64,000 nt of DNA from positions 933 through 64,932 of the IMG/VR virus record IMGVR_UViG_3300028854_000020; one strand, given 5' to 3'. The stretch is from a virus (lineage: Duplodnaviria > Caudoviricetes). Each line of letters begins with the position of its first letter. Within the stretch, counting starts at the first letter, position 1. Positions 1,941-60,016 of this stretch are shown piece by piece. The notes under the pieces are model-generated. The model searched no databases. It was not told where the DNA came from and was given only the letters and a program-made list of their open reading frames with translations. Both the position numbers and the translations under genes were made by a program.

Positions 1941-3098
1941 ATGAAACCAATGCCAGAGCATATCGGAGTCGGAATTACAGCAATGACTTCGTTGGAGTGC
2001 TTAGGCTCATTTAAACATGAATCTATAGGCATTTATCACAATTATTTTGTTACTGAAACTGCATGGGACTGGCCCAGCAAACCTAAACCTTCTAACATTG
2101 TTTTAGATGGTTTCTCCCCTAATCTAAATAAAGAATTACACATCGGCCATTTAAAAAATTTGGTCATTGCTTCTGCTTTAACAAATATTACATCTGCTTC
2201 ACCTGTTGCAATGTTAGGCGCAGCAAATGGAATAAACAATGGAGCGATGGAAGCATATAAAAAATGGTGTAATCTTGCAAACTACCATCCAAAAATTTAT
2301 CTTGATATAGAACTCCCTGCGCCATCAGAAAATCTTTATGATGGAGTTTCTGAATATGCAGGTTGTAAAATGTTCAACAATGTTGTAATTTACAAGTCTA
2401 CAGGCGCAAGCACATATGCAGCGCACGATTTAAGTTTTGCTAAACTTGTTGCGCCCGATTTTTATTTGACTGGACAAGAACAAAAAGAACATTTTTCTAA
2501 TTTGGGTTTGGGAACGAAGCATCTTCCAATGGGTTTGGTTCTTGGTAAAGATGGTTCTAAAATGAAAAGTACAATTAAAAAAGATGGAGATATTGCTAAC
2601 GGAATTACTGCGCAAGAATTAATTGATGAAATTTCAAAAATAATTAAACCAACACCCGATCCAATGGCTTTAATTTGGAATGTACTGGCATGGCAGTTTA
2701 ATTCTGCTTCCGTGAGCAAAAATACTATTTTGGATATAGAAAATTGGTGTAAAATTACAAGTCCGGGTATTTATATTAGTTATACTTTTGCTAAAATTCA
2801 AAAAGCATTGAGTTTTGCAAAAATAATGGGAGATAAAAATCAATTAAGTTTGGATGATGCTAAACTTTGTGGGTTTGCAAGTTATTTTCATTATTATTTG
2901 AATAAAGCAATTGAAAATAATGAACCATATTATATTGCACAATTTGCATTGTCATTATCAAAAAAATTATCTGAGATATATGATAAAAAATCTATTAAGG
3001 ATGGCACTGCTAGTTTTATATTTTCTGTGAACTATTCGCTAGACATATTGAAGCAATGTATGATATTATTAGGAATGAATGTTTTGAAAGAGATTTGA
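1941..3098 (+). CDS. argS: compact arginyl-tRNA synthetase-like protein
   Basis: FSPNLNKELHIGHLKN (HIGH), KSTGASTYAAHDL, EQKEHF, KMKS; DALR-like helical C-terminus ending ILLGM; only 385 aa. Confidence 0.75.
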   Translation: MKPMPEHIGVGITAMTSLECLGSFKHESIGIYHNYFVTETAWDWPSKPKPSNIVLDGFSPNLNKELHIGHLKNLVIASALTNITSASPVAMLGAANGINNGAMEAYKKWCNLANYHPKIYLDIELPAPSENLYDGVSEYAGCKMFNNVVIYKSTGASTYAAHDLSFAKLVAPDFYLTGQEQKEHFSNLGLGTKHLPMGLVLGKDGSKMKSTIKKDGDIANGITAQELIDEISKIIKPTPDPMALIWNVLAWQFNSASVSKNTILDIENWCKITSPGIYISYTFAKIQKALSFAKIMGDKNQLSLDDAKLCGFASYFHYYLNKAIENNEPYYIAQFALSLSKKLSEIYDKKSIKDGTASFIFSVNYSLDILKQCMILLGMNVLKEI

Positions 3099-3099
3099 T

Positions 3100-3750
3100 A
3101 TGAAACAACCAATTCACAAATTATATAAATATCCACGCTCTCTGCATTTACCCAATAGCCAAGGTATTACATCCGATGATAAGGTTTTGTCGCAAGACAT
3201 TGTTGATTCGTGGAATTGGGAGGTTGTTATTTCAGAAAAAAGAGACGGAGAAAATTTTTCTTTATATTCAGATTATTTCCATGCTCGTAGTTTGAATTTT
3301 GAACCTCATCCAAGCAGAAATAGAATTGCCGCGCTTCATTCTCGGATAGCTTATCAAATACCGACTAATTTTAGAATCTGCGGAGAAAATTTAACAGCAG
3401 TTCATTCAATAAAATATTGCAATCTCAAAGAAATTTTTGAGGTCTTTGGTATATGGAATGAGGAACAATGTTTATCTTGGGATGATACAGTTATTTTTGC
3501 TAATCTTTTAAATTTGCCAACTGTTCCTATTTTATATCAAGGAATTTGGGGAGAATCTGTAGCAAAATCAATTGTAGAAACATTAGATACATCAAAACAA
3601 GAAGGTTTTGTTGTTAGACCAACCCGCGCATTTTATTTAAATGAGTTTAATAGTGTAGTTGGGAAATGGGTAAGACATAATCATGTAATATCAACGTCAC
3701 ATTGGATTCGCCAAAAAATAGAATACAATGAGCTATCTTCTGTGCTATAA
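3100..3750 (+). CDS. RNA ligase family protein
   Basis: KYPRSLHLP, EKRDGEN (motif I), GEN, EGFVVR, KWVR. Confidence 0.85.
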   Translation: MKQPIHKLYKYPRSLHLPNSQGITSDDKVLSQDIVDSWNWEVVISEKRDGENFSLYSDYFHARSLNFEPHPSRNRIAALHSRIAYQIPTNFRICGENLTAVHSIKYCNLKEIFEVFGIWNEEQCLSWDDTVIFANLLNLPTVPILYQGIWGESVAKSIVETLDTSKQEGFVVRPTRAFYLNEFNSVVGKWVRHNHVISTSHWIRQKIEYNELSSVL

Positions 3751-21781: not shown

Positions 21782-21875
21782 AGCCCTATAGTTTAATGGC
21801 AGAACAGCGGTCTTATAAACCGTATTATCACTAGATTGGTGAATTGTCTCAGTTCGAATCTGAGTAGGGCTACCA
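21782..21875 (+). tRNA. tRNA-Ile(TAT) with long variable arm (94 nt)
   Basis: AGCCCTA/TAGGGCT acceptor, GCGGT-CTTATAA-ACCGT, 24-nt variable region containing TCACTA/TGGTGA stem, canonical T-arm, ACCA. Confidence 0.85.
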
Positions 21876-26442: not shown

Positions 26443-27684
26443 ATGATTAAAAATAATATAACATGTATTTTCTGTCGTAAATCTAGAGATAAAAGTTTAA
26501 AAATGGTTATTAGTGGAAACTATGCAATATGTGATAAATGTGTTTTTTTATTTGGTGGTCTTATTAAAGGGTCTGTTACTCCACAAGTAGCTTCAAAAGA
26601 AGCAGAAAAAAAACAATTGGCTGAACAATTAGATAGTATGAAAATTCGTGAATTTTTGGATCAATATGTTATTGGCCAAGAACCAGCAAAAATTGCATTA
26701 TGTGTAAGCATAGTAAATCATTATAAAAGAATGTTGTATGGCCAAGATAATGATGAATTAAGTAAAAGCAATCTAATGATTACTGGACCAAGTGGGAGTG
26801 GCAAAAGTTTACTAATTCGCACAATAGCTAAATTTTTAGATGTGCCATTTATATCAATTGATGCGACTACTTTAACCGAAGCTGGATATATTGGCCAAAA
26901 TGTAGATACGATTGTATCTAGATTATTAATTGAGGCCAATGGTGATATCGCTACAGCAGAAAATGGTATTGTGTTTTTGGATGAAATAGATAAAATTGCG
27001 ATTGGAAAAACAAGAGTATCAGCTAATGATGGAAGAGTATCGGGTATACAATCTGCATTATTAAAAATGGTCGAGGGTTCAATTATTCCACTTGGTATGA
27101 ATTTTGAATTAAAAAGGTCATCTAAAATGGCAGAAATTAATACTTCTCATATTCTTTTTATTTGCGGAGGATCATTTACAGGTTTAAACGAAATTGTAAC
27201 TTCACGATTAAAAAAGAAAAAAGGTATTGGGTTTACTGATAATATTACAGGAATGAATAATATGGAATCAGAATATACTACCGAAGATTTTATAGAATTT
27301 GGCATGATTCCTGAATTTGTTGGAAGATTTCCAATAAAAACATATACAAAAGAATTAACTAAAGAAGAATTATTACAAATTTTGAATAATAGCAAAAATA
27401 ATATTCTTACCGATTATAAATTTTATTTTTCTGTAGATGAAATTGATTTAGATTTTACACCTGAATTTTTAGAAGCAGTTGCAACCAAAGCAAAAACAGA
27501 AAAAACTGGAGTTAGAGGGCTTCGATCAATTTGTGATGAATTGATGTTAATGCATTTATATCTACTACCAGAATATAAAAAACGTGACGTAGCAAAAATT
27601 ACTTTTTTTGAAGATTGTATCGACAAACAAAAATTACCAAAAATTGAAATATTTGAAAAGAAAAAAATGGTAAAATCAAAATAA
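26443..27684 (+). CDS. clpX: ClpX ATP-dependent protease ATPase subunit
   Basis: C4 zinc domain, LDQYVIGQ, GPSGSGKS, TEAGYIG, FLDEIDKI, IGF loop, PEFVGRFP, GVRGLR. Confidence 0.93.
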   Translation: MIKNNITCIFCRKSRDKSLKMVISGNYAICDKCVFLFGGLIKGSVTPQVASKEAEKKQLAEQLDSMKIREFLDQYVIGQEPAKIALCVSIVNHYKRMLYGQDNDELSKSNLMITGPSGSGKSLLIRTIAKFLDVPFISIDATTLTEAGYIGQNVDTIVSRLLIEANGDIATAENGIVFLDEIDKIAIGKTRVSANDGRVSGIQSALLKMVEGSIIPLGMNFELKRSSKMAEINTSHILFICGGSFTGLNEIVTSRLKKKKGIGFTDNITGMNNMESEYTTEDFIEFGMIPEFVGRFPIKTYTKELTKEELLQILNNSKNNILTDYKFYFSVDEIDLDFTPEFLEAVATKAKTEKTGVRGLRSICDELMLMHLYLLPEYKKRDVAKITFFEDCIDKQKLPKIEIFEKKKMVKSK

Positions 27685-27789: not shown

Positions 27790-28251
27790 ATGACAATGCT
27801 CACTAAATCCTCGCTTATTCGAAATCCAGAAATATTAAATTTATATCACTCTTTAATTGGTTTTGATCAGTTTTTTGATGATCTTGATAGTTTTCACAAG
27901 AAAACAAACTATCCTCCATTTAATGTGATTCGTGTAGATGAATTACATTATGTTATGGAATTGGCTGTTGCTGGATTCTCACCAAAAGATATTTCAGTTA
28001 CAAGTAAACAAGGAGTGCTTACTATATCCGCAAAAACTACAGAATCAGACTCTTTAAAAGAAACAAATTATATTTATAAAGGGCTTGCATCAAGAGCATT
28101 TACCAAAGATTTCAAGCTATATGAACATATTTTTGTGACCGGAGCAACTTTTGATAACGGTATTCTTAAAGTAAATCTTGAAGTTAAACTTCCAGATCAA
28201 CTAAAAGAACAAAAATTTACAGTTATGGATCATAATCAACCAAAAGTATAA
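27790..28251 (+). CDS. small heat shock protein (Hsp20/IbpA-like)
   Basis: IGFD, NYPPFNV, LAVAGF, YKGLASRAF, NGIL. Confidence 0.93.
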   Translation: MTMLTKSSLIRNPEILNLYHSLIGFDQFFDDLDSFHKKTNYPPFNVIRVDELHYVMELAVAGFSPKDISVTSKQGVLTISAKTTESDSLKETNYIYKGLASRAFTKDFKLYEHIFVTGATFDNGILKVNLEVKLPDQLKEQKFTVMDHNQPKV

Positions 28252-30607: not shown

Positions 30608-31729
30608 ATGACGTATTTAAATGACATTCTCGATATAAATTTTCTTGCTCAGTTGATCAAGGATGGATATATTTCACAAAAATTTCATAATGATTATCCT
30701 CTTGCTATATTAAATTATAGTAAATTGGCTCAGTTTGACGAAAAATTAGTTTGGAACAACGAAATGAATTTGTCTCGTGGGTTGATTTACAATACTGACA
30801 CGATGGAAGTTGTGGCCGTTCCTTTTCGTAAGTTTTGGAACATTTCAGACTCTCGGCATCCTGAAACTATGCCTGAAAATCTTCCGAATGAAATTCCTTT
30901 GTTTTTGGAGAAGTTGGACGGTTCGCTTGGAATTTTGTTTGAATGGGATAACTTGAATCATGTAGCAACTAGGGGTAGCTTTCATTCAGATCAAGCAGTT
31001 TGGGCAACTAACTGGCTTCGAACCACTCATCCTAATTTGCAATTGCCGAAGGAAGGCACGATACTTGCTGAAATTCTTTATAAACAAAACAAAATAGTAA
31101 TTGATTATGATTTTGAAGGTCTTGTTGTTATTGGTGCAATCAATAAGGCAACTACAAAGGAAATGAATCGTGACGATTTGAAGGTTTATTGCCGAGTGAT
31201 GGAATTGAATATTGTTCAGGAGTATAAGAAATCTTTGAACACTTGTCTTTCTGAGGATGAAAAAAATCGGGAAGGATATGTTCTTACTTATCCGTCAACT
31301 GGTATAAAGGTTAAAGTTAAATTTGAAACTTATTGTCAGTTACATAAGATTTTGACAAATTTGAACGCACATAGTATTTGGGAATTGCTGCGTGATGAAA
31401 AGTCTCAAACTATTTCTGATTGGTTGAAAGATGAAAATATGCCTGATACTTTTAAGAAGTGGGTTAAGACGGTTTGGTTTTCATTAATCGGGAAATTTGA
31501 AAATATTTTAACGGAAGCAAATCATCGCTATGTTTCTCGTCCAATGACTGATCCATTTATGCCGTATAAGGAATCTCGTAAGATTATGGCACAATATTTC
31601 ACTTTGGAAGAAAATCGTAAATATTCTGGTTTGTTGTTTGGTATGCTCGATAAGAAAAATATTGACAAATCAATTTGGAAAATGATTGAACCTGCTGGAA
31701 GTGATGTATTTCTTGTGGACGGAGAGTAA
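30608..31729 (+). CDS. T4 Rnl1-type RNA ligase
   Basis: SRGLI, PFRKFWN, EKLDGSLG, ATRGSF, EGYV, KVKVK..Y..LH. Confidence 0.9.
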   Translation: MTYLNDILDINFLAQLIKDGYISQKFHNDYPLAILNYSKLAQFDEKLVWNNEMNLSRGLIYNTDTMEVVAVPFRKFWNISDSRHPETMPENLPNEIPLFLEKLDGSLGILFEWDNLNHVATRGSFHSDQAVWATNWLRTTHPNLQLPKEGTILAEILYKQNKIVIDYDFEGLVVIGAINKATTKEMNRDDLKVYCRVMELNIVQEYKKSLNTCLSEDEKNREGYVLTYPSTGIKVKVKFETYCQLHKILTNLNAHSIWELLRDEKSQTISDWLKDENMPDTFKKWVKTVWFSLIGKFENILTEANHRYVSRPMTDPFMPYKESRKIMAQYFTLEENRKYSGLLFGMLDKKNIDKSIWKMIEPAGSDVFLVDGE

Positions 31730-36061: not shown

Positions 36062-37969
36062 ATGTCCAGATCAAGGCGTAGACAAAAGAAAGATGTTTTC
36101 AGTGTCGTTGCTGCGGTTAAGAGCAATGCTAGGGATCGTATTGGAACTCCAAAGGCATCTTTTGTGATTACACCAAAGAATCAACGGTCTCCCCGTTACA
36201 AAGAAAAATTTACGGAAATTGATGATGAAATTAATACGGAGAAAGAATAATGGATTTAGTAGAATGTTCGGATTGTAAACATATTTGGATCATACAAAAA
36301 GTTATACCATATAGTTATTATCAAAAAAAAGGCCATACTGTTTGTCCAAAATGTTTAAAATTTAATTTACGAGTTAAGTATACTCATATTGACGACAATG
36401 CGTATTTATATTTGCGCAAACTTCCAATAGTTACTTTTATTAAATCAAATTTTTGGTGCGATGATCATATCATAAAATATCCAAAAGATACATTATTAAA
36501 ATTGTTAAATAAAAACAAATTTCTTTTTAAAAGAAATGAATCATCGAGTTATTGTGTTTATTATTATGATACTAATAATAATTTTGTGTTGATTAATTAT
36601 TCTAGAAAAAATAAAATGTCACATGCTTATCTTGGTTTTAAAAATAACAATGATCCGTTAATTAAGAAAATTATTGATGCTATCAAAGAAGATAAGCGAA
36701 TCAAGAAAGAGTTTGTTCCGCCAACAAAACCAATAATTGAATCGATAAAGGATGCAATTGGATATGATGTAACAGTTGGTGATTGGGTTGCACACTGGTC
36801 CACAAAATCACTTGGTTTTGGAAAAGTAAAAAGTATTGAATCATTTTCGATTTATGGAAGAGAAGATATTGGAATAAAAGTTCAACGATATAAACAAACA
36901 TCACAAATTAAAACATCGGATCAATTTGTTTTGATATCTCCAGAAAAAAGCATGCTTTTGGAATTGGAAAGGTAAATGGCACTTAACATAAAACCTAAAT
37001 CAATGAATGATGCAATCGGCGGAACGGTTATTATTGGTGATTGGGTTGCATTTTCAACAGGAATTCATGGTAAACTTTCCATTGGTAAAATTAATAAATT
37101 TAACGATTGTTCAATGATTGTTTATCGTCGCAAAGGTAAGGCATTACGTAAACAATCAACCCAAGTAATCAAAATAACAGATGAACAAGTAATGCTTCAT
37201 ATGTTCACGGAGAATTAAAAATATGACACAACATGTGCTGGCGCAGTGCCCAAATAGACATATAATACCATTATCGTTTAATGGAAGTATTAATAAATCT
37301 TATTGGAATAAGATTGTTCCTGCCATCGGAGAAACATTATCATGTCATGAGTGCAAAACTACAAACAACTATAATTATAATTTTTATGCTATAGCACAAT
37401 ATGATGCGAGACTTTCAATTAATAAATTTGTAGTTGAAACATTTGGCAGAGTATCATATTTTAATAAAGACCAACTTTTGAAAATGAACAAAGATTCCGT
37501 TCGCAAAATATTAACAGATCATAATTTTGTTTATGATGAAAAATCAAATATTTGTGATAAAACTATGGTTTTTTCATCTCCAGAAGGTTATAAAGCTGTA
37601 TTTATTGTAAAATCTGGATGTAAAACACAACAAATGTTTTTGTTAGTTCCAGCAAAACATGAACTAATTAAAAAAATTGATAGTGCAAATAAGAACGATA
37701 AAAGACAATTTAAGATTGAGGCTCCTCCAAAGATTATTTGTCCAACTGTTATTAAAGATTGTCTTGGAACTGAATTGTTTGTTGGTGATTGGGTTGCATA
37801 TTCTTCGATGTCTTATACTGCATTGAGATTTGGAAAAATTACTAAAATTAATCCAAAATCTGTAACATTAAAAGACAGTAAAGGCGGAAGAAAAATTCCG
37901 GGTAAAGATGTATCACAGATTATTAAAATTCCAGATGAAAGGGCGATGCTTTTGATGTTGGAAAGTTGA
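36062..37969 (+). CDS. four genes: 36062-36250 (basic) and 36250-36975, 36976-37218, 37223-37969 (C-terminal KOW-like domain plus shared C-terminal motif)
   Basis: D.IG....VGDWVA...L.FGK domain; ends MLLELER, MLHMFTEN, MLLMLES. Confidence 0.7.
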
Positions 37970-38130: not shown

Positions 38131-38407
38131 AAAATGGTTTGATGATGTGATCGCTGAAAAGATACACAGTGCTAATAATCATGTAATTTTGATTCCTGCA
38201 CAAAACCCAAACGCTCCTCTAGATACAGTGGATGTTTATGATGGCGTAACTGGAAAAGTTCTTGTTACTGATGTTCCAGAATCATCTGCCCAAGATTTTG
38301 CAATTATTTGGAATTCTTTTATTGATGATTCGGAAAATAATGAAACTGCCAAGAAAATAAATTTGGCATGGTTAACTGACAGTGTTGGAAACAGAAAGAG
38401 ATATTAA
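38126..38407 (+). CDS. hypothetical protein
   Basis: ATG follows the AAGGGG RBS of the second repeat unit. Confidence 0.6.
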   Translation: MTKWFDDVIAEKIHSANNHVILIPAQNPNAPLDTVDVYDGVTGKVLVTDVPESSAQDFAIIWNSFIDDSENNETAKKINLAWLTDSVGNRKRY

Positions 38408-38579
38408 TGAAAAAGATTGATAATTTTGACACCTGTATTGCTGCATTAGATTTTATCGATAGTTTAGCAAAGAAGAATAAAAAATACAAAGGATTACTAA
38501 ATAACACGTCAAATAATGATTTTAGTAAGGTTGTTTGGCAGGTTACTTACGATACAGAGTGGTTAAAAGATTAAATGCT

Positions 38580-38930
38580 CAGAAGTCGAAAGACTTTAAT
38601 AATAGTGAGAGGAGACTAACTTTATATGTATTCGGACGCGGATTGCGATATTCCGCCGGTTCCACCAAAATATGATTTAATGTTAGACACGAAACGTCTA
38701 TACGGGACCGACCAGTTTCGACGGGTATATTATAGGGAAACGTTACTATTCATGATGTGGTTCTCGCTTCATGTAAAACAGAGAGCACCATTTATAATTG
38801 CTGCTAACCGCATCAATGGCGTTAATGAAATTGCAACCTACAATGTAGTGCGCAATCAAGTTAACGTGCCAGTTCTAGCGTAATTGCAGAACTCCGGGGA
38901 ATGGCCCACCCTGTAAAATAACGGGCCATA
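38580..38930 (+). ncRNA. ssrA: circularly permuted (two-piece) tmRNA
   Basis: Acceptor piece ends GGACGCGG..CCGCCGGTTCCACCA (38667), upstream of the coding piece starting GGGACCGACCAGTTTCGACGGG (38704); G3-U70 pair; tag frame 38800-38883 after ATAATT. Confidence 0.88.
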
Positions 38931-39000
38931 TAAATTTAGAAAGAAGTTATAATGTTAAATATAAAATATAATTCGCTAAAATTGAAAAACTTTTAAATTT

Positions 39001-39705
39001 ATGAATATAGAAATAATTGAACCAAATTTAAACATTGTTTTTAATGGTTATAAAAATATTATAGCAATGGATATGGTTAACATACAACCACTAATGAAAC
39101 CTTTTTCTATATCATCACCAAAAAAGCATTGGGAAATAAAGAAATCCGGTCATCGATGGATTTTGGAAAGATGGACAGATTATAATTTTTTCACTCTATC
39201 TAGTCCAACACATCTTCACGAATGGTTTGATACCGAGGAAGAAGCTATTCAAGTAATGATGTTGGAAAAATTTGAAGAATAGGAAAAGATATAATGAAAA
39301 ATTATAGAATTCAATTTCGTGGAATTGGTCCTTTATGGACATATGAAAAACCATGGGCAGTTATTGAATATAGTGCAGAACATCTTCCATCAGCAAAAAT
39401 ATTTGCTACAGAAAAAGAAGCAAATGAACATTTAATGTTAAAGATGTTGGAGCAATAAAATGATGCCAAGTGATATGTGGGAATTCTTTTATGAATATGT
39501 AGAAGATTGTAATAATATTATAAAATATGGTGATATAAGAAAACTCCCTCGAAAATTTGATTGGAAACATCTATGTTGGTATAATGATAGATGGGAAGTA
39601 ACAGAAGGTGTTCTTCATACAAGAGCAGAAGGAAACAAATATTATATCTTTGATACCGAAGAACAGGCAAATGAATTTATAATGTTAAAGATGTTGGAAC
39701 AGTAA
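39001..39705 (+). CDS. three related small genes: 39001-39282, 39293-39457 (not in the track), 39460-39705
   Basis: All end F(D/A)TE.EA....ML..(F/L)E(E/Q). Confidence 0.7.
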
Positions 39706-39728: not shown

Positions 39729-40289
39729 ATGAAAATACAGTTTTTAGATTGTGAAATGTTATGTTGGGATAATATTGAGCCACCACAAGGACAAATCAAA
39801 CATATTATTCAAATAGGAATAGTTGAAGTAAATTCAGAAGACCTAAAAATATCCAGAAGTAAAAGTTATTACATTCGACCAAAAAATAAAGATTTTGAAT
39901 GTAGTGATTATTGCTCAAATTTAACAGGTATTACTCGCTCTAAGATTTTAGATGAAGGAAGATATTTTCCTGATGCAATGAATACAATAAAGAAAGAGTT
40001 TGGTCCTTCTTCAAAAATAACATATGCTTGGGGTAGTGATTACGAACCAATAGCAACTCATTGCTCAGACTATGATTGTAGTAACCCATGGGTAACATCA
40101 GGTATTTTAGATTTTGGAATAATTTTTCGTTCTGCATATAATTATAAACATAAAATGCCACTTATTGATGCATTAAAATCAGTTGGTATTCAATTTGAAG
40201 GACGGCAACATGATGCAGAATGGGATGCAAGAAATTTAGCATTACTACATAATAAAATGATGATGACAATTCGTAAATCTATGCTATAA
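39729..40289 (+). CDS. DEDDh 3'-5' exonuclease
   Basis: LDCEM, IIQIG, LTGIT, AWGSD, FEGRQHDAEWDARN. Confidence 0.88.
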   Translation: MKIQFLDCEMLCWDNIEPPQGQIKHIIQIGIVEVNSEDLKISRSKSYYIRPKNKDFECSDYCSNLTGITRSKILDEGRYFPDAMNTIKKEFGPSSKITYAWGSDYEPIATHCSDYDCSNPWVTSGILDFGIIFRSAYNYKHKMPLIDALKSVGIQFEGRQHDAEWDARNLALLHNKMMMTIRKSML

Positions 40290-53283: not shown

Positions 53284-53348
53284 CCTGTTTGTTTTCAATG
53301 ATTTATTTTTGTTGACATTTAACCACTATTTTGGTATACTGGAACTGT

Positions 53349-54371
53349 ATGAAAAAACTATTCACTACCGAGTATGGAAGTCGTCTTTATGGTACTGCCA
53401 CGCCCACGTCTGATACGGATGTGAAGCACATTGTGCTGCCGTCTATGAATGATCTTTTGCTTGGAAAATCTCTTGTAAACAAAGTAGATAAAACCAATTC
53501 TGTAAAATTTACTAAGAATTCTGCCGAAGATATTGATGAAGAATTCATCAATGTTCAAACGTTTGCAAAGGATTTTATTGGTGGTCAAACATATGCTTTG
53601 GAAATGTGTTTTGCAGTAGATTATGATAATGCAGGTCAGATTATTCATGATCCCTTGTTCAAGGGATTTTGTCATGAACTTAGAAATATGTTTTTAACTT
53701 CAAATATGACAGCATTGATTGGATATGCTGTAAATCAGGCATCATTATATTCTTTTAAGGGTGAGAGACTCAATGCTTGCCGCGCAGCGAAAGAATTATT
53801 TGAAGAGATGATTGAAAATTTTGGTGAGGATTTTAAACCTGTTGACTGTCGTGAAATATTTGAAAATAAAGCTAAAATCATTGCTGAAAATTTTCCAAAA
53901 TATTTTTCTTTGGAAGAATATGCCATTAATCACGAGGGAATGTTGCGTCCATGTATTAAATTGTTGGAGAAGATTTTGCCATATACAAGCACGTTTAAAA
54001 CTACGCTTGGTGTGGTTAATACAAATCTCAAGAAATATGGAAGTCGAGCAGATGCAGCCTCCATCGATAATGTGGACTGGAAAGCTGTGATGCATGCCCG
54101 TAGAGTAGTGGATGAAGGTATTTCTATACTAACTGATCGAAAACTTTCCTTTCCTTTTAATAAAGAATATGTAGATTTTTTGCTTTCTATAAAAAGAGGA
54201 GAACTTCCAAGAGAAGAAGTGTTTAGTGAATTAAACTCGCGTCTTGAAATATTGAAAACGCTGGAAGCAAATTCTACTCTTCCAAAAAAATCTGTTGAAC
54301 TTTCTAATACCTTGGATGTATGGTTGCTTGAGTGGTTGCGTATATGGTATGGATTGGAATTTTCATTATGA
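53349..54371 (+). CDS. Pol-beta-family nucleotidyltransferase (phage type)
   Basis: GSRLYGTATPTSDTD, DWKAVMHARR, LLSIKRGE. Confidence 0.85.
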   Translation: MKKLFTTEYGSRLYGTATPTSDTDVKHIVLPSMNDLLLGKSLVNKVDKTNSVKFTKNSAEDIDEEFINVQTFAKDFIGGQTYALEMCFAVDYDNAGQIIHDPLFKGFCHELRNMFLTSNMTALIGYAVNQASLYSFKGERLNACRAAKELFEEMIENFGEDFKPVDCREIFENKAKIIAENFPKYFSLEEYAINHEGMLRPCIKLLEKILPYTSTFKTTLGVVNTNLKKYGSRADAASIDNVDWKAVMHARRVVDEGISILTDRKLSFPFNKEYVDFLLSIKRGELPREEVFSELNSRLEILKTLEANSTLPKKSVELSNTLDVWLLEWLRIWYGLEFSL

Positions 54372-58591: not shown

Positions 58592-58684
58592 AAACATAAA
58601 CCGTTTATTTTCAATGGTTTATGTTTTATTTTATTGTTGACTTTTAATTTTAATTTTGGTATACTTTTAATAGTGAGGGAAGAG

Positions 58685-60016
58685 ATGACAACTCGTGAGA
58701 ATGCAAATTTCGTGATGGAGAAACTTGAAAATGCTGGATTTAAAGCATTTTTAGTTGGTGGCGCAGTGAGAAATTTATTGTTGGGATTGAATCCTCATGA
58801 TCTGGACCTCGCAACCAGCGCAAATCCAACTCAAGTTGCAACGTTGTTCCCAAATAGCAAATTTGTAGGTGAAAATTTCGGTGTATCTTTGGTTAATATC
58901 GAAGATGATCAGTTTGAAGTTGCTACTTTTCGTCTTGATGCAGCGTTTACTGCAACTTCTGATGGTCGGCACCCCGATGAAGTAAAATTTACCACTTCTG
59001 CCGAAGAAGATTGCCAACGAAGAGATTTTACGTGCAATGCATTATTTATGGATAGGCATGGCAAAGTATTTGATTTTGTTGATGGTGTTGCAGATATCAA
59101 TAATAAAGTTTTGCGATGTGTTGGCAATCCACTTGATCGTTTTCGTGAGGATAGTTTGCGAATGCTTCGTGCTGTAAGATTTTGTGCTTGTCTTGATTTT
59201 ACAATGGATAAGGAAACAAAGGTCGCGGTTGTTGCTTTGGCGCATACAGTTAAAAATCTCCCCGCAGAGCGCGTTGCCAGCGAACTTAGCAGAATGTTGA
59301 CAAGTGGACACGCCGATGTTGCCTTTGATCTGTTGCTGGAAACTGGTTTGGCTGCTGTTGTTATTCCGGAACTTTGTGACTTTGTTGGTTGTGAGCATAA
59401 TTCCAATTTTCATCCAGAGGGAGACGTTGCTAATCATGTTCGTTTGCTGCTTGCTGGTTTGGAGAAGGGTTGTAGTTTGACTCTTGCTCTCAGCGTACTT
59501 TTGCATGATGTTGCGAAACCAAAGACTCGTCGTTTGAATAAGGATGGAAAGACACAGTTTCTTGGTCACGAAACAGTTGGTGCAGCTATGGCCGAAGATA
59601 TCTTGCATCGGTTGAAGTTTAGTAATGACGTAATTAAGACTGTTGTTAGTCATGTAAGGAACCACATGAAGTTTTTCTGCACTCGACAGATGAAGCGTAG
59701 CACTCTTATGAGGTTTTTGCGCACGGATAATTTTCAGGAACTTTTGGCACTTGGTAAGTTGGATGTTGCTGCAAGCAATAAGGATTTCAGCGACGTTGAT
59801 TTTGTTGAGAGGTTCTTGAAGGAAAACGCCGATGAATTGAAGGCGGATCGTCTTGTTAACGGTGATGATTTGGTTGCTATGGGTTTTGTTCCCGGCCCCA
59901 ATTTCAAGGTATTGCTGGAACAGGTAGAGACGGCTCAGTTTGAAGGCAAGTTTACAACTCGCGAAGGGGCGCTGAATTTCCTTCGGAATAAAGCGCCCCG
60001 AAAAATGAAGGGATAG
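58685..60016 (+). CDS. cca: CCA tRNA nucleotidyltransferase with HD domain
   Basis: LVGGAVR, DLDLAT, EVATFR, RRDFT.NA, RFREDSLRMLRAVRF, HPEGDV, LLHDVAKP. Confidence 0.92.
   Translation: MTTRENANFVMEKLENAGFKAFLVGGAVRNLLLGLNPHDLDLATSANPTQVATLFPNSKFVGENFGVSLVNIEDDQFEVATFRLDAAFTATSDGRHPDEVKFTTSAEEDCQRRDFTCNALFMDRHGKVFDFVDGVADINNKVLRCVGNPLDRFREDSLRMLRAVRFCACLDFTMDKETKVAVVALAHTVKNLPAERVASELSRMLTSGHADVAFDLLLETGLAAVVIPELCDFVGCEHNSNFHPEGDVANHVRLLLAGLEKGCSLTLALSVLLHDVAKPKTRRLNKDGKTQFLGHETVGAAMAEDILHRLKFSNDVIKTVVSHVRNHMKFFCTRQMKRSTLMRFLRTDNFQELLALGKLDVAASNKDFSDVDFVERFLKENADELKADRLVNGDDLVAMGFVPGPNFKVLLEQVETAQFEGKFTTREGALNFLRNKAPRKMKG

Follow-up and report, generated by a model that had tools for sequence, protein, structure and literature searches.

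Positions 38585-38928 on the + strand of the window, by which we mean the whole 64,000-nt stretch of DNA analysed here, very probably form a functional tmRNA gene of the two-piece kind, carried by a jumbo-type phage from peat. A two-piece tmRNA in a phage is an already known kind of gene. What is new is a clade-specific, selected tag that lacks the usual Ala-Ala end, together with a re-tooled phage ClpX to which the tag may be matched.

Genomic context

The window is a 64,932-base IMG/VR virus record minus its first 932 bases, with a GC content of ~32%, and the public runs that contain its sequence are labelled peat metagenomes. Nearly all of its genes lie on the + strand. Pfam matches include a ribonucleotide reductase, a dCMP deaminase, NadA, a DnaB-type helicase, PP2C, Hsp20 and ClpX, as well as two RNA ligases, a CCA-adding enzyme and an ArgRS-like protein; together with six tRNA genes, these last four proteins are in keeping with a phage that invests in translation machinery. 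In its helicase and ClpX the phage is closest to the jumbo phages PA5oct, Atu_ph07 and Phosso (39-48% aa), and the IMG/VR record with the nearest helicase (80% aa), G003, is 359,890 bases long. For these reasons the record is probably a fragment of a jumbo-phage genome, despite a completeness estimate of 64%.

Kin phages were reached only through the helicase and ClpX; the proteins flanking the locus (37223-37969 and 39729-40289) are without relatives in IMG/VR. The helicase search of IMG/VR returned 48 kin loci, and tmRNA genes were sought in 10 of the corresponding records: eight longer than 150 kb (L150, L151, L155, L167, L168, L177, L180 and L186) plus L142 (80% helicase identity) and L144 (62%). 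A permuted tmRNA scored above the cut-off in 7 of these 10 jumbo-phage records.

Anatomy and detection of the permuted gene

The tmRNA_permuted model of Rfam (RF04321) aligns over its full length (positions 1-213) to 38601-38841 with 63.0 bits against a gathering score of 47 (E = 8.4e-10 over the 64-kb window). A combined pattern for the tRNA-like part gave one match in the window and none in 100 shuffles, and the match of the locus to a permuted tmRNA is far beyond chance. Membership in RF04321 is backed by the score, by an Ala-type acceptor, by the permuted order of parts and by a tag frame that ends in a stop codon. A sequence-only reading of this DNA had proposed a circularly permuted tmRNA in a phage; the Rfam check that it suggested was passed, and every element that it had named (the coordinates, the pairings, the encoded CCA, the spacer, G3:U70, the resume codon and the 27-codon tag) is present in the sequence (Table 1). 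The suggested check with ARAGORN held in part. The default and -ps settings call no tmRNA at the locus; at 80% of the threshold (-ps80) the program reports a permuted tmRNA with identical pieces and the same 27-codon tag, labelled 'Tag not identified'.

Table 1. Coordinates in the window of the permuted tmRNA gene, its parts and the ClpX region
Feature	Position	Strand	Description
Phage ClpX	26443-27684	+	413 aa; Pfam zf-C4_ClpX, AAA_2; ~11 kb upstream of the tmRNA gene
Hsp20	27790-28251	+	Follows ClpX
5' hairpin	38583-38596	+	5 pairs, GAAA loop; just upstream of the acceptor piece
Circularly permuted tmRNA gene	38585-38928	+	From Rfam, ARAGORN -ps80 and the sequence
Acceptor piece	38601-38667	+	From the Rfam alignment, ARAGORN -ps80 and the three-phage pair table
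Outer inter-piece helix	38601-38608/38743-38750	+	8 pairs
Inner inter-piece helix	38626-38634/38722-38730	+	9 pairs, 3 of them G-U
T stem	38638-38642/38652-38656	+	5 bp; 9-nt loop TTGCGATAT
3' acceptor strand	38657-38663	+	CGGTTCC; then discriminator A 38664 and encoded CCA 38665-38667
Intervening segment	38668-38703	+	36 nt; holds a 5-bp hairpin, 38684-38700
5' acceptor strand	38704-38710	+	GGGACCG; start of the coding piece
Coding-piece start	38704-38799	+	Acceptor strand, GTTTCGAC motif, inter-piece 5' strands, candidate PK1, resume context
Candidate pseudoknot PK1	38751-38755/38769-38773 and 38760-38765/38781-38786	+	5 + 6 bp, drawn by eye
Tag reading frame	38800-38883	+	27 sense codons (AANRINGVNEIATYNVVRNQVNVPVLA); GCT resume codon 38800, TAA 38881-38883
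Post-tag H-type pseudoknot	38895-38928	+	S1 38895-38899/38909-38913; S2 38902-38907/38923-38928

The acceptor stem joins the two pieces by 7 pairs, among which G38706:U38661 occupies the G3:U70 position. The T loop is as atypical as the sequence-only reading had said: it has 9 nt with a U-U closing mismatch and carries G at position 55, and it keeps U54 and A58 as in standard T loops. Within the mismatch, UGCGAUA shares 5 of 7 positions with the alpha consensus and likewise with the standard loop. The resume context reads TATAATT followed by GCT, and since RF04321 aligns TAATT|GCT with its own UAAaU|GCa without gaps, we take GCT 38800 as the resume codon. At candidate PK1 the helix that the Rfam model places there is unformed, and when the kin are aligned with MAFFT the drawn pseudoknot is retained in part. 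Folding the precursor, or the two pieces, to minimum energy recovers the T arm, the acceptor stem and the spacer hairpin; the inter-piece helices are absent from these folds. No prominent sigma-70-like promoter or intrinsic terminator is seen at the locus.

Several of these results count against a working tmRNA. The RF04321 score is low, the second lowest among the permuted tmRNAs scored in this analysis, with only the homologue L193 (48.6 bits) below it. No lineage model is passed: alpha_tmRNA (RF01849) reaches 41.5 bits under a cut-off of 50 and covers only positions 77-179 of 355, the tRNA-like domain, the beta- and cyanobacterial models (RF01850, RF01851) give no match at gathering score in the window, and relaxing E to 10 adds two overlapping clan matches, both below alpha's 41.5 bits. 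To these may be added the rejection by ARAGORN at default settings, the T loop with its G55, 9 nt and U-U mismatch, a tag without an Ala-Ala end, and a PK1 that the alignment fails to support. The default setting of ARAGORN also misses L193 and the gene of Phosso, which argues that phage tmRNAs are under-annotated.

Homologues in sister phages

The structure can be judged by comparison, because true homologues are present in the two closest helicase kin (80% aa): G003, with tmRNA locus L192 (87.1 bits to RF04321), and G004, with L193 (48.6 bits). Pairing was tabulated from a three-way MAFFT alignment of the window, L192 and L193, and the covariation is that of three sequences. All 7 acceptor-stem pairs are kept in all three phages, 4 of them changed on both sides, and the G:U at 3:70 is common to all. 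The T stem keeps 5 of 5 pairs with 3 changed on both sides, the outer inter-piece helix 7 of 8 with 3 changed on both sides, and the inner inter-piece helix 7 of 9 with one pair (38629/38727) changed on both sides. The post-tag pseudoknot is retained in all three with differing stem sequences, as judged by eye given that MAFFT misaligns both pseudoknots. The 5' hairpin of the window is identical in L193, which also has the spacer hairpin 38684-38700 and a 9-nt T loop; L192 has a standard 7-nt T loop and, at the same place as the 5' hairpin, a GAAA-loop hairpin with another stem (again by eye, since MAFFT misaligns this element).

These compensatory changes bear on whether the locus could be a functionless decaying or captured host fragment, or whether the 85-codon open reading frame 38626-38883 could be the real gene. 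The low model score would suit the former, and for the latter the tag frame can be followed, without a stop, through 58 further codons upstream to ATG 38626, with AGGAG 11 nt ahead of it; yet the RNA helices are maintained in three phages, the region is present in RNA-library contigs, the frame has no Pfam or PHROGs match, and conservation in L192 and L193 tracks RNA pairs instead of the frame, so that both ideas are highly improbable.

Other searches yielded no relatives. In blastn, 38400-39000 had no match among 50,697 phage records. A T-arm pattern run over IMG/VR turned up two GC-rich genes of alpha type, neither of them a relative, and a T-loop pattern found one locus, L133, a chance match. 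Pattern scans of metagenome contigs gave no loci and then four (L138-L141), none of them a tmRNA; a scan of genome contigs gave four, comprising two Sphingomonadaceae tmRNAs and two chance matches. The Sphingomonadaceae genes share the T-arm geometry of the window, which can be drawn as 5 bp + 9 nt or 6 bp + 7 nt, but their extra pair is G-C.

Presence in RNA libraries

We compared the locus with assembled contigs, as distinct from reads, of four metatranscriptome runs from four studies. In three of the runs contigs identical to the window lie across the gene, in X15 at 38629-38925, in X16 at 38680-38927 and in X17 at 38585-38879; the fourth run, X18, covers downstream sequence only. Thus 38585-38927 is covered by contigs of three studies with zero differences. 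Sequencing-adapter letters directly precede 38585 (in X17) and 38629 in two contigs, and contigs from two studies stop at 38925 and 38927, at the end of the post-tag pseudoknot, which gives a weak hint of a 3' end near 38925-38927. X15 and X17 cross the spacer and so represent precursor or contaminating DNA, not mature pieces. No contig in the four runs covers 38300-38584, and downstream contigs have lower depth figures; depth and uncovered flanks are unfit for ranking genes or for placing a transcript boundary. On this evidence the locus is an expressed-looking tmRNA gene.

One contig has an unusual form. The contig of X16 has 248 nt and an overlap of 30 nt, and its sequence passes from 38927 back to 38680, the form in which assemblers print a circle or a head-to-tail repeat. 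It would correspond to a circular or head-to-tail RNA made of the coding piece and 24 nt of the spacer; the phage encodes two RNA ligases.

Relation to known phage tmRNAs

The sequence-only reading had placed two-piece tmRNAs in alphaproteobacteria, some betaproteobacteria and cyanobacteria and had seen novelty in a phage example. Neither the restriction nor the novelty stands. A two-piece tmRNA has been described in the OM43 phage Melnitz (Buchholz et al. 2022, PMC9004378). That report lists 133 unique tmRNA genes from 402 of 18,146 phage genomes, and ARAGORN suggested a two-piece form for 53 of the 133, 50 of these 53 belonging to marine or aquatic phages; its Table S1 names Caulobacter, Synechococcus, Pelagibacter, Roseobacter, Sphingobium and other phages (PMC9004378). 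A 2025 tmRNA database holds 79 phage sequences (PMC11915505). In our searches a generic permuted-tmRNA pattern found at least 118 IMG/VR loci, with ARAGORN at default settings calling 57 of the 118 matches listed. When 10 permuted loci were scored with Rfam, RF04321 was passed by all 10, the alpha model by 5, the beta model by 4 and neither by 1. Permuted tmRNAs were also found in 12 of 79 ClpX-bearing IMG/VR phage records searched, in addition to the 7 of 10 helicase kin.

Like Melnitz, HTVC008M, Mosig, the Caulobacter phiCbK-like phages and cyanophages (PMC9004378), the window carries a permuted ssrA on a large lytic-type phage genome. The order of acceptor piece, short spacer and coding piece is the same, and no phage SmpB is found. 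The window differs from the tmRNAs described there by the absence of blastn similarity, the miss by ARAGORN at default settings, the 9-nt T loop, the 27-codon tag that ends VPVLA and not AA, and an origin in peat instead of marine samples. Unlike phages described in that account, it has no Rfam match to a glutamine riboswitch in the window.

Nearer systems combine a permuted tmRNA with ClpX in one genome, as the window does. Both co-occur in the Sinorhizobium phage Phosso (PV764938.1), where the tmRNA is unannotated, and in G005, G006, G008, G010 and G011; in AP-J-162, tmRNA, ClpX and Hsp20 are annotated (PMC11242549). The helicases of this group (Phosso, AP-J-162, G005, G006, G008, G010 and G011) are related to that of the window at 47-62% aa and the ClpX proteins at ~40%. 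Unlike the window gene, the tmRNAs of these kin pass the alpha or beta models (84-117 bits), their tags are short and canonical (for example ANDNVSTKVALAA or ANDSQFALAA), and their ClpX proteins keep GYVG in pore-1 and ITRDVSGEG in pore-2.

Lineage of the permuted gene

The sequence-only reading had raised the possibility that the phage gene was permuted on its own, in an event apart from those behind the alpha-, beta- and cyanobacterial genes. The window, L192 and L193 pass no lineage model, the window matching alpha at 41.5 against 50 bits and over the tRNA-like domain only. Yet the part order and the break point, which falls after the post-tag pseudoknot and before the inter-piece 3' strands, match those of alpha- and beta-type genes, and because of this shared architecture an independent permutation is not supported. 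The post-tag pseudoknot also resembles theirs in sequence: with L016 the agreement is 83% across 36 nt, with the beta-type L106 95% across 19 nt. A similar pseudoknot element with differing stem-2 sequences occurs in L016, L006, L030, L031, L106 and L097 and is modelled in the Rfam beta_tmRNA family; the strict pattern for it occurs in 23 of 119 sequences, compared with 1 of 119 shuffles. Kin phages reached through the helicase have ordinary genes, beta-type in L190, L191 and L195 and alpha-type in L194, and divergence from such genes is the simpler reading. L192, L193 and L289 pass neither the alpha nor the beta model, as with the window, and the same is true of the tmRNAs of G015/G016 and G001. 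A separate permutation is thus very unlikely, and we conclude that the window gene is, by its sequence and architecture, best read as descended, with much divergence, from permuted forms already known.

Among these the alphaproteobacterial two-piece tmRNA (RF01849, Caulobacter type) is the best-scoring lineage model and has the T-loop G55 and the post-tag pseudoknot in common with the window. The window carries GTTTCGAC where the alpha consensus has GGATCGAC, retains U54/A58 as standard loops do, stays below the alpha cut-off with a match to the tRNA-like domain only, and encodes a tag unlike alphaproteobacterial tags.

A conserved tag family without the Ala-Ala end

The tag was correctly singled out as unusual in the sequence-only reading, with its 27 codons and an end of VPVLA instead of AA. 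L192 encodes a tag of 26 codons (AVNNSGRNAEIATYTVALNRVAVPVA) and L193 one of 23 (ANSVNDGTEVYTHSVKIRVPVMA, hand translation). The window and L192 tags have the same residue at 14 of 26 aligned codons, 7 of these through other codons, and differ at 12. VPV and the terminal Ala are invariant in all three tags, and none of the three ends in Ala-Ala. The three are homologous and belong to a clade-specific family in which E-I/V, T-Y/H and V are conserved along with the VPV(x)A ending. Since residues are kept through synonymous codon changes, the tag peptide, besides the RNA, is under selection, and this selection argues that the tag frame is translated.

This conservation weighs against the view that the RNA chiefly sequesters host SmpB or blocks host trans-translation and does no tagging. 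Such a decoy function was proposed for the tmRNA of mycobacteriophage DS6A, described as a tRNA-like domain only (PMC4131195), and the tRNA-like domain of the window gene is itself divergent; but the reading frame, the resume context, the stop codon and the post-tag pseudoknot are all retained, and a tag peptide kept by synonymous changes in three phages would be superfluous for a pure decoy. We regard a decoy role as quite improbable and keep to a tmRNA that tags.

More distant kin have ordinary tags, ANDEMFALAA, ANDSQFALAA and ANDDYYDYALAA. Long clade-specific tags do occur in other large phages: those of G015/G016 have 21 codons and end DVLA, those of G034/G017 have 29 and end LAV, and that of G001 has 31 and ends IAA (hand translation). 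They have no sequence likeness to the window tag and belong to other clades (ClpX at most 45% identical or absent), and our literature search found no description of any of them. At several IMG/VR loci the tag is 22-27 residues long and ends LAA or VAA, according to a rough heuristic parser that could read 61 of 119 sequences, 39 of them ending AA. For E. coli, the Ala-Ala-COO- end is reported to weigh most in recognition by ClpXP (Fei et al. 2020, PMC7652416). The reader of the window tag is most likely a protease system distinct from, or an altered version of, canonical ClpXP.

A phage ClpX as candidate tag reader

The phage's own ClpX is a candidate for this reader. It aligns nearly full length with E. 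coli ClpX chains (310 bits) and retains the C4 zinc finger, Walker A and B, a GYIG pore-1 loop and GIGF at the ClpP-docking IGF position. G003 and G004 each encode a ClpX of 69-71% identity that precedes the tmRNA by 11-12 kb and shares its strand, an arrangement matching that of the window. Residues Y153, V154, T199, V202, R228 and H230 are reported as those by which E. coli ClpX recognises ssrA (Fei et al. 2020, PMC7652416). The window protein carries Y, I, A, G, L and R at the aligned places, a departure from the E. coli-type set that may bear on its specificity. Across 88 aligned phage ClpX proteins (5 kin, 80 IMG/VR loci and 3 GenBank phages), pore-1 is GYIG in 5, namely the window, G003, G004, L204 and L205, and GYVG in the other 83; the five also have a rebuilt pore-2 loop in common.

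These features raise the prospect that tag and ClpX are matched, the VPV(x)A end serving as a degron or handle read by the phage ClpX through co-changed substrate loops. We consider this a minority reading, well below an even bet; it would refine the explanation of a working tmRNA and not exclude it. Among 18 records with a ClpX and a readable tag (ClpX-bearing IMG/VR records plus kin and Phosso), pore-2 positions 199/202 are T or S/V in all 11 whose tags end AA. In the 3 with VPV(x)A ends they are A or T/G, A or S, and in the 2 with DVLA ends (G015, G016) N/I, so that V202 is missing from all five. The 2 with LAV ends (G034, G017) have S or A/V, and this clade's retention of V202 speaks against the match. 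The co-variation of tag end and pore-2 is suggestive and comes from two clades with both changes, for which p is ~0.045 on 12 lineages in a hand calculation uncorrected for ancestry. H230 is missing from several AA-tag phages as well (Phosso, G005, G018, G019), which means that the RKH loop does not tell the tag types apart.

Further points against a match come from ClpX proteins without a tmRNA. Atu_ph07 and PA5oct have ClpX and no tmRNA, and the phage ClpX surely has substrates besides the tag, as ClpX has many. G013 and G014, with ClpX of the GYIG type, gave no tmRNA up to an E of 10, the best match (L292) being rejected; because both records are fragments, this absence is uninformative. 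Taken with the conserved synteny and with pore loops altered only alongside a non-canonical tag, a possible circuit of tag and ClpX has some comparative support. Alternatively, the tag may conceal rescued products from host ClpXP.

The sequence-only reading had gone further and imagined a private circuit of ribosome rescue and degradation, which the gene content does not bear out. Its suggested search for smpB turned up no member of the family in the record, nor in 15 kin records that include Phosso and three with a completeness of at least 90%, with control genomes positive; the absence of a phage SmpB means that host SmpB is needed as partner. ClpP gave no family match in the window record. 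ClpP-family matches are present in 11 of the 15 kin records, six at 217-269 bits; the others, that of G003 among them, are partial (88-107 bits) and could be head-maturation proteases. With SmpB and ClpP absent from its record, the phage would draw SmpB, AlaRS and EF-Tu from its host, and perhaps ClpP as well.

Proposed mechanism

For the working two-piece tmRNA we propose the following course. A single transcript of ~340 nt, roughly 38585-38928, would be cut by host tRNA-end enzymes at G38704 and trimmed to the encoded CCA at 38667, with loss of the 36-nt spacer; removal of the spacer by tRNA-end processing is expected from known two-piece tmRNAs (PMC11915505). The coding piece probably ends where the post-tag pseudoknot does. 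An acceptor piece of ~70-80 nt and a coding piece of ~225 nt would then be held together by the acceptor stem and the two inter-piece helices, and host AlaRS would charge the tmRNA by way of G3:U70 and the discriminator A. Together with host SmpB, the charged tmRNA would enter stalled ribosomes, where translation would resume at GCT 38800, and the product would gain Ala and the 27 encoded residues with their VPVLA end. 

Biological meaning

Phage tmRNAs are known, but to our knowledge none has a tested function. The case described here joins a selected tag that departs from the near-universal Ala-Ala rule with a loop-altered phage ClpX in conserved synteny. The tmRNA, the tag and the phage ClpX are three clonable parts, and they turn the question of why phages carry a tmRNA into a direct test.

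It is conceivable, though we hold it rather unlikely, that the peat jumbo-phage clade runs a partly orthogonal quality-control route, in which its own tmRNA writes the conserved 23-27-residue VPV(x)A tag. A like drift of tag and unfoldase may have arisen more than once in jumbo phages, as in G015/G016. Should tag and ClpX prove to be matched, the products of stalled ribosomes would have a partly orthogonal route in these phages, and the pair would provide a naturally occurring orthogonal system of degron and unfoldase, as well as a case of viral rewiring of ribosome rescue.

Tags and spacers of permuted tmRNA genes in other phages

Permuted tmRNAs of other jumbo phages also carry long tags that are clade-specific and have endings other than LAA. 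Those of L289 and L290 (tmRNA loci in the IMG/VR phage records G015 and G016) end in ..EDVLA, and those of L285 (G034) and L286 (G017) in ..LAV. Hand translation of a further jumbo-phage locus, L016 (G001), gave a tag of 31 codons. CCA is not encoded in the L289 gene.

Phosso, a Sinorhizobium jumbo phage distantly related to the window phage, carries an alpha-type permuted tmRNA (L126) with the tag ANDNVSTKVALAA and a spacer of ~410 nt. The gene was missed by ARAGORN, and no feature is annotated at its position in the Phosso record. In L002, an alpha-type permuted tmRNA from IMG/VR, the intervening segment is ~85 nt longer than in L003, another tmRNA locus, and includes tRNA-like T-arm sequence; the tmRNA was the sole ARAGORN call at this locus. 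Small ORFs were seen within the long spacers of L286, L195 (G010) and L196 (G011), that of L286 encoding a hydrophobic peptide of 21 residues with GGAG upstream.

Features of the window and of Phosso
Feature	Location	Strand	Remark
ArgRS-like protein	window 1941-3098		385 residues; weak matches to two ArgRS domains
RNA ligase, first of two	window 3100-3750
tRNA-Ile(TAT)	window 21782-21875		94 nt
RNA ligase, second of two	window 30608-31729
RlaP-like protein	window 53331-54371
CCA-adding enzyme	window 58634-60016
Alpha-type permuted tmRNA of Phosso (L126)	PV764938.1 349596-350198	-	113 bits

Other features of the window

The tRNA-Ile(TAT) has a 21-nt extra segment, apparently unpaired, between its anticodon and T stems, which is unusual for an isoleucine tRNA. 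The ArgRS-like protein, much shorter than bacterial ArgRS, weakly matches the Pfam class-I ArgRS catalytic domain (28.6 bits) and the DALR anticodon-binding domain (22.8 bits). Immediately 3′ of the last tmRNA stem lies TATAAAT (38928-38934), described in PMC9004378 as the core of the T4-type late promoter; the next ORF starts 67 nt downstream, at 39001.

An RNA-library contig that connects back on itself

In the assembly of X16, one of four metatranscriptome runs compared with the window, a contig of 278 nt (248 nt plus a 30-nt overlap) spans the tmRNA coding piece. It corresponds to positions 38680-38927, comprising the coding piece and 24 nt of the spacer, and position 38927 connects back to 38680. 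Such a junction is characteristic of an RNA that is circular or joined head to tail. Among the phage's own genes are those for the two RNA ligases, the CCA-adding enzyme and the RlaP-like protein listed above. A library artefact could also account for the junction.
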